The translations under genes and the position numbers were made by a program. The notes below the pieces were generated by a model. It saw only the letters and a program-made list of their open reading frames with translations, ran no database searches and was not told the origin of the DNA. From Terriglobia bacterium (GTDB lineage Bacteria > Acidobacteriota > Terriglobia > 2-12-FULL-54-10), in assembly GCA_963666975.2 (NCBI GenBank), contig CAXVYR010000004.1:1632001-1696000 (forward strand): a DNA stretch of 64,000 bases, in the 5' to 3' direction. Positions 36,973 to 41,601 of the stretch are shown piece by piece. Position 1 is the stretch's first letter. Every line of letters begins with the position of its first letter.

Positions 36973-37278
36973 GCAGCAGCCCCTCAAAACTTAAACATCG
37001 TCCTGAACTTCTTCTGCAAATCGACCTCGACCAAGCCTCTGCGCCGGACTTTTTGAGCTTCACTGCCCTTAGCGCCGAGTTTCAGTTCCTGGAAAAAGCG
37101 AGGAACAACTTGCGGCCGGGCAGGTTGTTGAATTTTTCCGCCAGTCCGGGCGCAGCTTCTCCGCACCCATCGGAGGCGCCGCCGGTATTACCCCCTCGTC
37201 GTCGGAGGAAGCCGGATATTTGGATATAATGTTAGGGCGATACAAATTCACAGCACTGCCAGCAAGGAGATTCATCAG

Positions 37279-37731
37279 ATGGCTCATGCACCGGGGAAAT
37301 TTTGCGGGGACGTAAACAAGGTTCGCTGGAGCTTGATTGCAGGCACCCTCACGCGAACGACCACCGAGGGCGGGATATGGAATACAACTGAAATGCCCGT
37401 CCAGCAAGTGATGGGGATCGAGAAGCTGACGATTGAGGAAAGCCGCCGGGCGCCGCTCGGCGTGCCGGTTACGTTATTTGCCGTGGCCCTTTTGGCGATT
37501 GCCGGATGGGCCGGCTCGATCCCCGTCGGCGTGATCGGGATGCTCTGCCTGTTTTGGGGCGTCCGGATGCTCCCCAAGCAGAAGGTCTCGCACGAAGCTC
37601 ACCGGCTGCTGGGCCCCGGTCTGGACCCGAAGGAATGGGTGCTGGTCGGCTCCGGCGCTGACGTCGCAGGCTTCCTCGATGCGCTCCAGTCCGAGCTGTC
37701 GCAAAAAACCGAGTCGGTGCAGACGCAGTAA
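37279..37731 (+). CDS. Hypothetical membrane protein
   Basis: AAGGAG RBS; two hydrophobic helices. Confidence 0.65.
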   Translation: MAHAPGKFCGDVNKVRWSLIAGTLTRTTTEGGIWNTTEMPVQQVMGIEKLTIEESRRAPLGVPVTLFAVALLAIAGWAGSIPVGVIGMLCLFWGVRMLPKQKVSHEAHRLLGPGLDPKEWVLVGSGADVAGFLDALQSELSQKTESVQTQ

Positions 37732-37819
37732 GAAAACGCGCCAGGAAAGAAAAACGGAAGGAAGAACGAAAGAAGGGAAAGCGGCAGGGCAACGGGAGTG
37801 AGCCAGCTCTGAAGCTTTT

Positions 37820-38725
37820 TTAGAAGACTCGGATCATCTTCAAGCCGCTGGCCAGCACCAGCAAGGCCATCCCGAACTTCAGCGGCCGGGCTGGAGTTAA
37901 GTAAGCCAGCCGGCTGCCCAGAATCACGCCGGGCAGGGAACCCAGCAGCAAGTTAGCCGCAAGCGGAATATCGACGGTCCCAATCTGCCAGTGCGTCACG
38001 GCGGCGGCGCTGACCAGCACCAGGGCATGGGCGATGTCGGTCCCTACGATGCTGGTGGCGGGAAGCCGCGACACCGCGATCAACGCCACGGCAATCAATG
38101 CCCCGCTTCCCACCGAGGTGAGCCCCACCAGGAAACCGACCCCAGCTCCCAGCAGGATGATCTTGGCGCGGTGCGCCCGCGGGTCAAACGGCTCCGATAC
38201 GCCATCCTCACGGCGGCGCTTCCGGTAGATTTCATGGATCAACGTAACGAAGGCGGCCAGGACCAGTACCCCGCCCAGGCCCATCCGCACCATTCCGTCC
38301 GCCGAGCCGTACTGCAGGTTGACGTAGTGGATCAGGTAGCTGGCTGCCACGGAGGCCGGAACGCTCCCGATGGCCAGGTATCGCACCCAGCCCCACTGGA
38401 TGCTGCCGCGCTTCCAGTGCTGGTGGGACCCAACCAGCTTGGTCACCGAGCCGTACAACAGGTCGGTCCCCACGGCCACCATGGGGCGCACGCCCAGCAA
38501 GATGAGGATCGGGGTAAGAACGGAACCGCCCCCGACGCCCGTCAGCCCCACCAGGAAGCCGACCACCAGCCCCACTAGAATAATGAGAAAGCGGAGTTCT
38601 GAGATCAGTTCTCCGGTGGACTGGGCCAACTCCGCCTGGAGGAAATGGAGCAACGCCGCCCCGGAGGGCACGTCGAACAGCGTCATCGCCGCTGCGTTGC
38701 CGGATTGTATGAGGCCGATTGCCAT
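37820..38725 (-). CDS. Sulfite exporter TauE/SafE family protein
   Basis: GFLVGLTGVGGGS, AVGTDL, VGLTSVGSG, IVGTDIAH. Confidence 0.92.
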   Translation of the reverse strand: MAIGLIQSGNAAAMTLFDVPSGAALLHFLQAELAQSTGELISELRFLIILVGLVVGFLVGLTGVGGGSVLTPILILLGVRPMVAVGTDLLYGSVTKLVGSHQHWKRGSIQWGWVRYLAIGSVPASVAASYLIHYVNLQYGSADGMVRMGLGGVLVLAAFVTLIHEIYRKRRREDGVSEPFDPRAHRAKIILLGAGVGFLVGLTSVGSGALIAVALIAVSRLPATSIVGTDIAHALVLVSAAAVTHWQIGTVDIPLAANLLLGSLPGVILGSRLAYLTPARPLKFGMALLVLASGLKMIRVF

Positions 38726-38758
38726 CGAATTTTCTGCGAGCTTCCTGAAAACCTGCGT

Positions 38759-38803
38759 AAAAACAAAAAACCCACCAACCGATTTGCCGGTTGGTGGGTT
38801 TTT
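38759..38803 (-). terminator. Intrinsic (attenuator) terminator between the Cys leader and the tauE-family gene
   Basis: CCCACCAACCG-gcaaat-CGGTTGGTGGG followed by TTTTTTGTTTTT on the minus strand. Confidence 0.85.
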
Positions 38804-38826
38804 GTAAGCCTGAATTAAGAAAAAAT

Positions 38827-38943
38827 CTAATTCAAACCACTACCCCCCGCGCCGGCAGACGTACAACAACACATACAACAGCACGCCATCTGGCCGCTGA
38901 CCATTGTCTGGGTGTTTGCCGGTTTGGAGTAGCAGAAACGCAT
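38827..38943 (-). CDS. Cysteine-rich leader peptide (MRFCYSKPANTQTMVSGQMACCCMCCCTSAGAGGSGLN)
   Basis: Six Cys codons within seven codons (38863-38883), directly upstream of a terminator and a sulfur-transport gene. The exact start Met is uncertain. Confidence 0.75.
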   Translation of the reverse strand: MRFCYSKPANTQTMVSGQMACCCMCCCTSAGAGGSGLN

Positions 38944-39193
38944 TGAACAAATAGTAATTGCTAAAAGCAAGCTCCATTCTAGGAGGCCCCCGTCTGGCGT
39001 GTCAAGCAAATAATCACCAAATTTTAAGCCATTTTTGCGCGTCACCGCTTTACCTGCCAGAAGGGGTTTTGCCTGCCGGGAGGGCGTTTCCCCCAGGCGT
39101 GGGCCGCCTGGTTTTATGAGTGAACATTTCCCTAGACAGCCAGGAACGGCGGGCATATAATGGCTGCCATCTGAGGTTATGGGTAAAAATTCA

Positions 39194-39244
39194 ATGCTCG
39201 AACGCACTCGATTTTACTTTTACTGGAGGTGGGCGGGCCGCTGA
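39194..39244 (+). CDS. Aromatic amino-acid leader peptide (MLERTRFYFYWRWAGR)
   Basis: F-Y-F-Y-W-R-W run upstream of a terminator and DAHP synthase; alternative in-frame ATG at 39179. Confidence 0.85.
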   Translation: MLERTRFYFYWRWAGR

Positions 39245-39269
39245 AAGGATTCAGCAGCGTTGAGTTCCC

Positions 39270-39306
39270 GCCCGCTCGGTCAGCCCGAGTGGGCTTTTTG
39301 CTTTTA
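39270..39306 (+). terminator. Attenuator terminator upstream of DAHP synthase
   Basis: GCCCGCTCGG-tcagc-CCGAGTGGGC-TTTTTGCTTTT. Confidence 0.85.
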
Positions 39307-39350
39307 GGGACGCTTTCCGGTCGAGGCGCGGCTTATCGCGGAGGCAAAAC

Positions 39351-40400
39351 ATGATTATATCAATGAAGCTAAGGGCCAGCAAACAGGAGGTGGAGCACGT
39401 CTGCCAGCTTCTCCGGGAATTTGGTTATAAAGCCCACACCATCCAGGGAGAGGAGCGGGTCGTCATCGGCGCCGTGGGCAAGCTGGAAAACAAGCAGCAG
39501 GTGATGAACTCCATCGAATCCGCGCCGGGCGTCGAGTCGGTGGTCGCTGTCAGCCAGCCCTACAAGTTTGTCAGCAAAGAATCGCAGCCGGGCAAGACCG
39601 TTCTCCGGCTCGATGGATGCTCCATCGGCGGCGCCGAGTTTGCCGTCATTGCCGGCCCGTGTTCGGTGGAGAGCGAGCAGCAGATACTGTCAACGGCAGA
39701 GGCCGTCAAGAAGGCCGGGGCCACCATCCTGCGCGGAGGCGCCTTCAAGCCCCGCACCTCCCCTTACGATTTTCAGGGCCTCGAAGAGGAAGGCCTCAAG
39801 TTGCTGCGAAAAGCAAAGGAGAAAACGGGGCTGGCCGTCTGCACCGAGGTGATGTCGCCACAGGATGTGGAGATGGTCGCCGAGTATGCCGACGTGCTGC
39901 AGATAGGCGCTCGCAACATGCAGAACTACACTTTGCTCAAGCGGGTGGGCAAGACGAACAAGACGGTCATGCTCAAGAGAGGACTCAGCGCCACGATCAA
40001 GGAGTTGCTGCTCTCGGCCGAATACATCCTGACCGGCGGCAATCCGAATGTCTTCCTGTGCGAGCGCGGCATCCGAACCTTTGAGACCTACACCCGGAAC
40101 ACGCTGGACCTGTCCGCCGTCCCGGCGCTGGCCGAGCTTACCCACCTGCCCATCATCGCCGATCCCAGCCACGGCACGGGGAAGCGTTCCCTCATCCCTC
40201 CCATGTCCCGTGCCAGCGTGGCCGCCGGAGCCGACGGGATCATGGTGGAGGTCCATACCAATCCGGAGAAGGCATTCAGCGACGGCGCACAAGCCTTGTT
40301 GCCTTCCGAATTCGACCAACTGATGCAGGACCTGAAACCTTACCTGGAAATCTGGAAAGCCACCCGCACGGCTGCCCAGGCCTCCGCCGTGGTCGCATAA
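39351..40400 (+). CDS. aroF: 3-deoxy-7-phosphoheptulonate (DAHP) synthase, type I-beta with N-terminal ferredoxin-like regulatory domain
   Basis: [44 protein letters not shown]. Confidence 0.95.
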
Positions 40401-40415
40401 GCTGAGTGTCTCTGT

Positions 40416-40544
40416 AGGACGGAGGAAGCGGTCGAACTCACCCGCGAGGCGATTGACATTCACATCGAGAGCCTCCTGCAGGACGGCATCTCCGTGCCTT
40501 CGCCTAGCTCCGAGGGTGAGTTTGTGGAGGTGACTGCCGCCTGA
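40416..40544 (+). pseudogene. HicB-like antitoxin C-terminal remnant
   Basis: RTEEAVELTREAIDIHIESLLQDGISVP; no start codon. Confidence 0.55.
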
Positions 40545-40683
40545 CACGGCGTTGCAGTCGCGCTTCGGGTTGGAGGGGGTGGCGTTGAGAAAACCCACAG
40601 CGAGAAAAAGCACTCGCCGTGGCCACCCCGCTTCGGCCATACTTTTACCCCTTCCTTGATTGCGTCCGTTGCATAAGCTGTGA

Positions 40684-41454
40684 TCAAGAAGCCGTACCCT
40701 CCGGCTTCCCTTGCAACCCTAACCTCATAATCTCTGGATTTGTAGATCGAATGATTCTGAGAATTGCGACAGGGAACGCTGACGGTGGACCCACGCCTCC
40801 TTCCATCCGCTGGTTTTCTCGATCTCCAAAAACGCAAAATCCAGCTTGCTCCAGTTCGCGAAGTAATGAGGCCATCTTAAAAGTCGCTCTTACCCGCGCG
40901 GCTGCTTCCATATCAGACCACATTTCTCCGTAGTCCTGTGCTTCCTGAAGAAAGTGACCAACCAGATCAACTTCTGCTTCGGAATGAAGTTCTTCGTGTT
41001 CAAACGAGCTTGCCGAGGCGTCGCCCACGATCTTCATGATGTCGCCACCTGACGTAAGACGCACAAGCAAAGGAGGAATGTTTTCTTTGATACGTCGTAT
41101 ACGAACCGGCTGGACCTGCTTCTCCTCGGTTAGGGTTGACGATACCCACTTCTCATGGTTTGCCTTTATCTTATGAAGTACCTCAGCAGTGTAGGTTTCA
41201 TGCTGATCGTCGACCATCTTGTGGTGAGTTCGGCATAACAAAACCAGGTTATCTGGCTCATCTAGGCAGTCAGTTCGGAAGGCAAGATCGTGTCTTGGCC
41301 CCTGGCCTTTCCCCGAAACGATGTGGCATTCCTCACCCACCACGGATTCGTCATCCGCCGGGGTAGCTTCTACCACTAGTTCTCGCCTACATATGGCACA
41401 CCGGTTTCCAGACTTTCCCCACAAGACCTTCCTCGTTTTATCTGAGATTGACAT
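40684..41454 (-). CDS. HNH endonuclease domain protein
   Basis: LWGKSGNRCAIC..EECHIV..NLVLLCRTHHKMVD. Confidence 0.85.
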   Translation of the reverse strand: MSISDKTRKVLWGKSGNRCAICRRELVVEATPADDESVVGEECHIVSGKGQGPRHDLAFRTDCLDEPDNLVLLCRTHHKMVDDQHETYTAEVLHKIKANHEKWVSSTLTEEKQVQPVRIRRIKENIPPLLVRLTSGGDIMKIVGDASASSFEHEELHSEAEVDLVGHFLQEAQDYGEMWSDMEAAARVRATFKMASLLRELEQAGFCVFGDRENQRMEGGVGPPSAFPVAILRIIRSTNPEIMRLGLQGKPEGTAS

Positions 41455-41601
41455 GAGCCACGATGTCTTGACTAATGAGCAGCGGGTGTCTCGCAAAGTA
41501 GATTTTTTCGTGGGCCTTCTTAACAGTAGAAAACGAACCTGCCCGCACTAGTGCGATTATACCTAAACGAGATGCCTCAGAGCCGTTGAGCACCACTCGG
41601 C

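Follow-up and report, generated by a model that had tools for sequence, protein, structure and literature searches.

A probable cysteine-responsive transcription attenuator ahead of a TauE gene in a Terriglobia bacterium, with similar leaders before other sulfate-assimilation genes

The window analyzed here is a stretch of 64,000 nucleotides from a Terriglobia bacterium (GenBank assembly GCA_963666975.2, contig CAXVYR010000004.1). On its minus strand, a gene of the TauE/SafE family is preceded by a short cysteine-rich ORF and an intrinsic terminator. A first-pass annotation of this DNA had described a small ORF containing C-C-C-M-C-C-C, a strong hairpin with a U-tract 24 nt after its stop, and then a tauE-family gene. 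All of these were found again, the ORF at 38943–38827 on the minus strand. Two further parts, a promoter (TTGACA-18-TAGAAT) and an upstream protector (38933–38917), were missing from that annotation. The features are as follows, in window positions.

39000..39005, minus strand: −35 hexamer (TTGACA) of the leader promoter, unchanged across all 8 aligned tauE leaders
38976..38981, minus strand: −10 hexamer TAGAAT, with a putative start site near 38969
38827..38943, minus strand: leader ORF of 38 codons plus TAG, encoding MRFCYSKPANTQTMVSGQMACCCMCCCTSAGAGGSGLN and containing CCCMCCC
38917..38933, minus strand: segment 1 (protector), partner of segment 2; the 1:2 duplex has −17.3 kcal/mol and is present in the MFE fold of the naked RNA
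38863..38883, minus strand: sensor codons Cys-Cys-Cys-Met-Cys-Cys-Cys, with UGU as five of the six Cys codons
38841..38857, minus strand: segment 2 (antiterminator strand), partner of segment 1 or 3; the 2:3 duplex has −19.6 kcal/mol; assigned by position in the family and covariation
38808..38837, minus strand: predicted inner hairpin holding the leader stop codon, nested within 2:3
38785..38803, minus strand: segment 3, terminator 5′ arm and shared switch strand; assigned by folding and covariation
38759..38782, minus strand: segment 4, terminator 3′ arm and U-tract; assigned by folding and covariation
37820..38725, minus strand: tauE (TauE/SafE, TSUP family, 301 aa), the putative regulated gene; PF01925, E 7e-48

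The leader promoter is of the σ70 type, with TTGACA from 39005, an 18-nt spacer, and TAGAAT at 38981–38976, and sequence inspection gives 11 of 12 consensus matches. The leader ORF follows an AU-rich 5′ leader of ~26 nt that has no Shine–Dalgarno motif. The intrinsic terminator (38803–38759) consists of 17 pairs followed by UUUUUUGUUUUU, and its first base lies 24 nt past the leader stop. Its hairpin has −27.1 kcal/mol (z −5.8), and none of 200 shuffles was equally stable. The U-tract is only 34 nt from the tauE start. A tauE promoter downstream of the hairpin had been named by the first-pass annotation as evidence that would count against regulation by the leader, and no promoter match was found in this interval. 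The encoded protein scores 163.7 bits against PF01925, for which the cut-off is 32.6. Because the next ORF (37279–37731) is convergent, tauE is probably the sole gene of its transcript in its own genome.

Rfam covariance models searched over 37000–41500 gave nothing near any gathering score and no credible family. A T-box or SAM riboswitch was considered and set aside, since neither family is among the seven weak matches (E 0.12–4.9) of that interval.

A second probable attenuator lies back to back with the Cys one in divergent orientation (39133–39300, plus strand), before aroF (39351–40400), which encodes DAHP synthase. It has a promoter match at 39133–39161, a terminator at 39270–39300, and a leader at 39194–39244 (plus strand) that reads MLERTRFYFYWRWAGR, and combines Phe, Tyr, and Trp codons. 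Of the eight family loci that include upstream DNA, seven have a similar aromatic leader with an ATG, and the remaining one shares the codon motif. In the masked folding described below, the values for this leader go from 0.96 ahead of the run to 0.53 at the stop, a less clean switch than that of the Cys leader. For Acholeplasma, PMC8632094 describes an aroF uORF containing Phe codons. Between aroF and a large helicase-like ORF lies a weak HNH-endonuclease-like ORF (40684–41496, minus strand; E 3.5e-5).

When folded as naked RNA, the leader contains 1:2 (38933–38917 with 38857–38841), the inner hairpin that encloses the stop, and 3:4, the terminator. In the folding model, four mutually exclusive pairing segments form a trp-like 1:2/2:3/3:4 switch. 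The first-pass annotation had recommended folding the alternative structures, and among these 2:3 has −19.6 kcal/mol. It had also proposed that the terminator 5′ arm pairs with the 3′ end of the leader at 38844–38833. This part has GGUAGUGGUUUG and can indeed pair with the arm (−8.8 kcal/mol), but the main partner is the overlapping 38857–38841 (−19.6 kcal/mol). Segment 2 holds the arm chiefly via CCGG, against the loop-side half of the arm. Pairing of 38840–38833 with the arm is ~0 in every masked fold. The segment 38844–38833 is mostly part of the inner hairpin around the stop, and it was rejected as the main antiterminator.

In masked folding, RNA was folded only downstream of the ribosome and before the 3′ arm emerges. 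Mean sequestration of segment 3 was 0.64 for Cys stalls versus 0.17 at the stop, and it was higher for the Cys stall in 64 of 64 leaders. In the family, sequestration falls at the 3′ edge of the Cys run, within 2–3 codons after it, and in the window leader it drops from 0.6 to 0 within three codons past the run. The same script produced the same step after the sensor codons of Escherichia coli trpL and thrL, and no clean switching for the hisL control. Computed in this way, the antiterminator is mutually exclusive with the terminator, free at a sensor stall, and masked at the stop. This supports the first-pass proposal that a ribosome on the Cys codons or at the stop decides between antiterminator and terminator.

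The energy gap between the terminated and antiterminated states is 11.8 kcal/mol, compared with a range of 4.7–25.0 kcal/mol for trpL, thrL, and hisL. At equilibrium, the full-length RNA always has the terminator formed, even with a stalled ribosome, so antitermination must be under kinetic control. The 1:2 protector was compared in 60 leaders with kin kept in, and cognate pairs had −23.7 kcal/mol versus −20.2 kcal/mol for permuted ones. One locus (L150), which has neither a start codon nor a sulfur gene, was excluded from the segment, permutation, masked-fold, Met-count, and energy-gap tests.

We conclude that the tauE element is very probably a leader-peptide transcription attenuator of the classical, trp-like kind, with the supply of charged tRNA-Cys as its signal. 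The promoter, the six-Cys leader ORF, the four segments, the terminator, and tauE are all present in the sequence, and their pairings were computed. We infer translation, stalling, and regulation by analogy with trp and thr attenuation, whose logic is established.

The switch would proceed in the following courses. Segments 1 and 2 would pair upon emergence, and a ribosome initiating at 38943 would open 1:2. First, when cysteine is scarce, the ribosome would stall on the Cys run, 6–27 nt upstream of segment 2. With the 3′ arm still to be transcribed, segment 2 would then capture the terminator 5′ arm (2:3), and polymerase would enter tauE. Second, when cysteine is plentiful, the ribosome would reach the stop and cover segment 2 and the inner hairpin, so that 3:4 would form and transcription would end. 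Third, when the leader is not translated, 1:2 and 3:4 would lead to termination.

Covariation had been another check suggested in the first-pass annotation. In 62 leaders, duplex energies with the arm stay near −8 at all positions except a 30-nt stretch that ends 10 nt ahead of the stop, where they reach −18. The core of segment 2 tracks the arm, as CUGGC/GCCAG (21 times), CCGGC/GCCGG (10 times), and CCGAC/GUCGG (5 times). Cognate 2:3 pairs were better than all 10,000 permutations at the level of 41 clusters. At five clusters (70% linkage) the cognate test was not significant, with 1622 and 3368 of 10,000 permutations as good. Only 39 of 64 leaders beat 95% of their segment-2 shuffles.

An unfitted alignment of 51 leaders was also scored; the other 14 of the 65 had been set aside for shifted geometry or weak matches. 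Two-sided changes occur at five of seven pairs of the 2:3 helix (e.g., U-A 20 and C-G 14) and at six of 14 pairs of the terminator helix, so that covariation is seen in both. More cells were paired in the 2:3 helix than in any of 500 shuffles. In a slide control, the +1 register scored higher for covariation (0.196) than the named register (0.178), in part because the unfitted alignment shifts the tauE leaders by one column.

The leader ORF has several signs of being translated. Its first ATG is invariant in eight of eight aligned tauE leaders, the gaps between the ATG and the Cys run are multiples of three in all eight, and the Cys codons differ at position 3 only. UGU makes up 289 of the 459 Cys codons in 65 leaders versus 25% in long ORFs of the window's own genome, an excess to which intergenic base composition could contribute. 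This genome has one tRNA-Cys(GCA) gene. The absence of a Shine–Dalgarno motif and the position of the ATG, ~26 nt from the putative start site, were counted against the attenuator reading. The ATG is 32 nt past the −10 hexamer in the window versus 6–13 nt in many relatives, which are near-leaderless. Metatranscriptome contigs from four runs of two studies align perfectly to parts of the tauE coding region; none covers 38696–39295, and they carry no information on strand, ends, or level.

Recurrence of the element was examined in three sets that were picked without using Cys, namely, tauE orthologues, terminator-only matches, and terminator-like sites of the window's own genome. All five close tauE orthologues among 40 relatives (57–94% identity) have a leader with 6–7 Cys and the same terminator, and the Cys run is thus conserved in relatives, a point on which the first-pass annotation had staked its reading. 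The records with TauE 57–94% identical to the window protein are titled Acidobacteria or Terriglobia. The terminator-only pattern gave ten matches in 301 genomes of the class. Nine of these are in the window's family, all after a Cys leader, and the single match outside the family has no Cys leader. A Cys-only DNA pattern run on the same 301 genomes drowned in trinucleotide repeats and gave no information outside the family.

In the own genome, an upstream ATG mini-ORF with CCC was found at three of 731 terminator-like sites, which precede tauE, sat-cysH, and a NirA/SirA-type reductase gene. The sat and cysH products score above NCBIfam cut-offs; the NirA/SirA-family reductase scores below its cut-off and is called a sulfite reductase by context. 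Thus, sulfate uptake, activation, and reduction would each carry a leader.

The reductase leader (G000:C4:1085345-1085185, minus strand) encodes MRGKSHLRRIMCCCCCCCV upstream of the sulfite-reductase-type gene. In this leader and in that of locus L070, a TAG comes almost directly after the Cys run, which places the antiterminator past the stop; locus L080 has the usual longer frame. The sat-cysH leader (G000:C4:1767908-1767750, minus strand) is near-leaderless and has a different terminator sequence. It is kept in both same-genus relatives, one of which has an early stop after CCCP, and masked folding gave 0.78 on CCC versus 0.35 at the stop.

A pattern joining CCC codons to the terminator collected 100 loci, 30 from genomes and 70 from metagenomes. 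In 84 of them, the ORF stops 20–40 nt before the terminator. A sulfur-pathway-type gene lies downstream in 79 of these 84 versus none of the other 16, although the loci were picked by the CCC-plus-terminator pattern and the references for the downstream labels were drawn from the same set. The downstream genes of the 84 are sulfite-reductase-type (29), tauE (24), rhodanese-type sulfurtransferase (12), cysD (4), peroxiredoxin (3), cysH (2), and one each of sbp, cbs, cysG, sat, and a MetX-like gene; four loci are too short to tell and one has no match. The titles of the 22 named genome loci with the same geometry give Acidobacteria or a subgroup in 20 cases, Myxococcales in one, and Gastranaerophilales in one.

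The element is not a general feature of TauE genes, since no Cys leader was found in the 450 nt upstream of distant tauE homologues at 17 loci (at most 43% identical). One of these 17 homologues sits further down an operon that starts with a Cys leader. In a relative (L069:1463-5500), a reductase-type Cys leader is followed by what appear to be the first reductase codons only, a split tauE, cysH, cysD, and cysN, which suggests that the leader was transferred to another operon. In L009 and L010, from another family, a reductase-type gene is divergent from tauE-cysH-cysD, and the absence of a Cys leader within 450 nt before tauE implies some other control there.

Several other readings of the leader or of its gene have to be weighed. 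The best surviving one keeps the attenuator and makes it a dual sensor of sulfur amino acids, in which Met codons in or just before the run stall the ribosome as well. The thrL leader is controlled by both Thr and Ile. All eight aligned tauE leaders have an AUG either at mid-run or two codons ahead of the Cys run, Met occurs within or adjoining the run in 37 of 64 family leaders, and the antiterminator signal for a ribosome stalled on those Met codons (0.6) equals that for a Cys stall. On the other side, the middle codon is Ile or Thr in some orthologues, the AUG before the run may serve as an alternative start, and 27 of the 64 leaders have no such Met, these being raw counts. We regard co-sensing of methionine as rather doubtful, and cysteine as the very probable signal of the attenuator.

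A different question is what TauE carries. The first-pass annotation had pointed out that induction upon cysteine starvation would make this ‘exporter’ an importer of sulfur, and this is now probable. The orthologous tauE in relatives directly precedes cysD-cysN-cysH, sat-cysH, or cysH, and, as reported in PMC11535334, a Pseudomonas TauE complements E. coli cysA and an Acidovorax homologue is tied to a cys operon. Because of this linkage and that importer, the window TauE is likely the sulfate importer of the assimilation pathway. It resembles TK06_RS10770 and Ac3H11_578 (PMC11535334) in belonging to the TauE family and in its linkage to sulfate assimilation, a likeness drawn from their descriptions. 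In its own genome, tauE is standalone, without adjoining sulfate-assimilation genes. In favor of import by TauE, this genome (98.9% complete) has no family match for the sulfate-binding protein Sbp. The window TauE also has ~45 residues ahead of the Pfam domain, which are similar in close orthologues and absent from ~40%-identical homologues.

The regulation could be as proposed with TauE carrying thiosulfate, sulfite, or sulfonate, or exporting sulfite. Sulfite and sulfoacetate exporters are among the characterized members of the family (PMC11535334 and PMC5840216). The nearest Pseudomonas and Oxalobacteraceae homologues are only 38–39% identical to the window protein, and the tree does not resolve their joint placement with it. 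One SulP-family gene is also present in the own genome, so that TauE may not be the sole importer, as are three other, distant TauE genes. These points are opposed by the position of the orthologues at the head of cysDNH or sat-cysH operons, and by the fit of import with induction by cysteine shortage. Moreover, an Oxalobacteraceae genome has its best homologue flanked by cysB and a sulfite-reductase-type gene, which is the setting described for the sulfate importer in PMC11535334. Another substrate or direction is therefore judged unlikely, and sulfate import is the preferred assignment. In the 450 nt upstream of the nearest proteobacterial homologues no Cys leader was found, and CysB is among the neighbors at the Oxalobacteraceae locus.

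It is very unlikely that the nascent Cys-rich peptide itself is the sensor, as an arrest peptide for metal, sulfide, or thiol state, or that it has a function of its own. Runs of 4–14 Cys do resemble metal-binding peptides, and peroxiredoxin genes follow three of the 84 leaders, but the peptides vary in sequence and length outside the run, with no conservation there in the eight aligned tauE leaders, and relatives tolerate a frameshift or stop directly after it. The exact peptide is also absent from a collection of 15 billion proteins, a weak point since small ORFs are rarely called there. Also very unlikely, despite a strong hairpin that wins at equilibrium, is a constitutive terminator of a small-RNA or small-protein transcript with tauE under its own promoter, as only 34 nt without a promoter match are left for it and the compensatory 2:3 changes and the recurrence before about ten different sulfur genes would go unexplained.

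With the cysteine attenuator as the preferred reading, each sulfate-assimilation unit of the own genome (tauE, sat-cysH, and sulfite reductase) would have its own leader of such kind. The best CysB match in this genome has 26.5% identity. We tentatively propose, as a possibility at present less probable than its negation, that the sulfate-to-sulfide pathway of this lineage is run by a dispersed, modular attenuator regulon in place of a CysB-type regulator. One attenuator family would then stand before about ten sulfur genes, the tauE version would co-sense methionine, and the leader would mark the TauE clade as sulfate importers and the peroxiredoxin, rhodanese, and MetX-like products as parts of cysteine supply.

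If the attenuator is real, classical attenuation also reaches sulfur assimilation, in a phylum that is abundant and mostly uncultured. The attenuator would also be a compact switch and a functional tag in favor of sulfate import by TauE proteins of a clade that is annotated as exporters. The mechanism is textbook and the surprise is limited to that extent; here, it would act on the whole sulfate-assimilation pathway. A 2014 paper of the Lyubetsky group reportedly predicted cysteine-dependent attenuation, Rho-dependent or classical, in Actinobacteria, and this prediction may lower the novelty of the tauE element.

The first-pass annotation knew of no Cys attenuator with an intrinsic terminator controlling a TauE gene in this lineage. 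In the literature searched, none is reported before tauE or in Acidobacteria, and no experimentally tested one is reported at all. The kind itself has been predicted, however, and the nearest case is that before cysS (PMC8632094). In the supplement of PMC2965389, of which the covered part holds 30 of ~138 Acidobacteria rows, no Acidobacteria row appears at the eight ‘sulfite’ places, the five ‘DUF81’ places, or the first 18 of 25 ‘sulfate’ places. The supplement text of PMC8632094 contained no matches, and PMC4833913 and PMC5840216 served as background only.

The cysS case, uORFC-8-2 of Rhodobacterales (Alphaproteobacteria), combines a Cys uORF with a U-tailed terminator and is predicted only. 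Like the tauE leader, it is proposed to allow readthrough on tRNA-Cys shortage. It has two tandem Cys codons, mostly UGC, and stands exclusively before cysS (PMC8632094). Compared by description, the tauE-type family differs from it: the runs have 3–14 Cys with UGU as the main codon, the terminators are of a different family, and the genes downstream serve sulfur uptake and assimilation.

Mycobacteria have poly-Cys leaderless sORF attenuators that are translational, acting by SD occlusion, without conserved terminator hairpins (bioRxiv 10.1101/834739 and PMC1262725). These sORFs are like the tauE leader in lying near the transcript 5′ end, before cysteine-pathway genes, and several per genome. 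The tauE element differs in its output, an intrinsic terminator ending 34 nt upstream of the start codon. It is not a leaderless sORF of the mycobacterial type, as 32 nt separate its ATG from the −10 hexamer, with a start site placed by prediction. SD pairing of that type does not apply either, as the terminator is conserved and the predicted switch helices end at least 34 nt before the tauE start.

The closest likeness is to classical attenuators, whose features are found here as an end-product codon run in the leader ORF, a terminator before the first gene, an antiterminator, and a protector. E. coli trpL, thrL, and hisL have the same arrangement of a leader ORF with a cognate codon run, 1:2/2:3/3:4 helices, and an intrinsic terminator. 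Even the distance from stop to terminator is similar, at 24 nt in the tauE leader versus 23 in thrL. Unlike the E. coli attenuators, the tauE element would sense Cys and control transporter and sulfate-assimilation units rather than a carbon-skeleton biosynthetic operon, and tauE-type leaders occur in Acidobacteriota and are often near-leaderless or without a Shine–Dalgarno motif.
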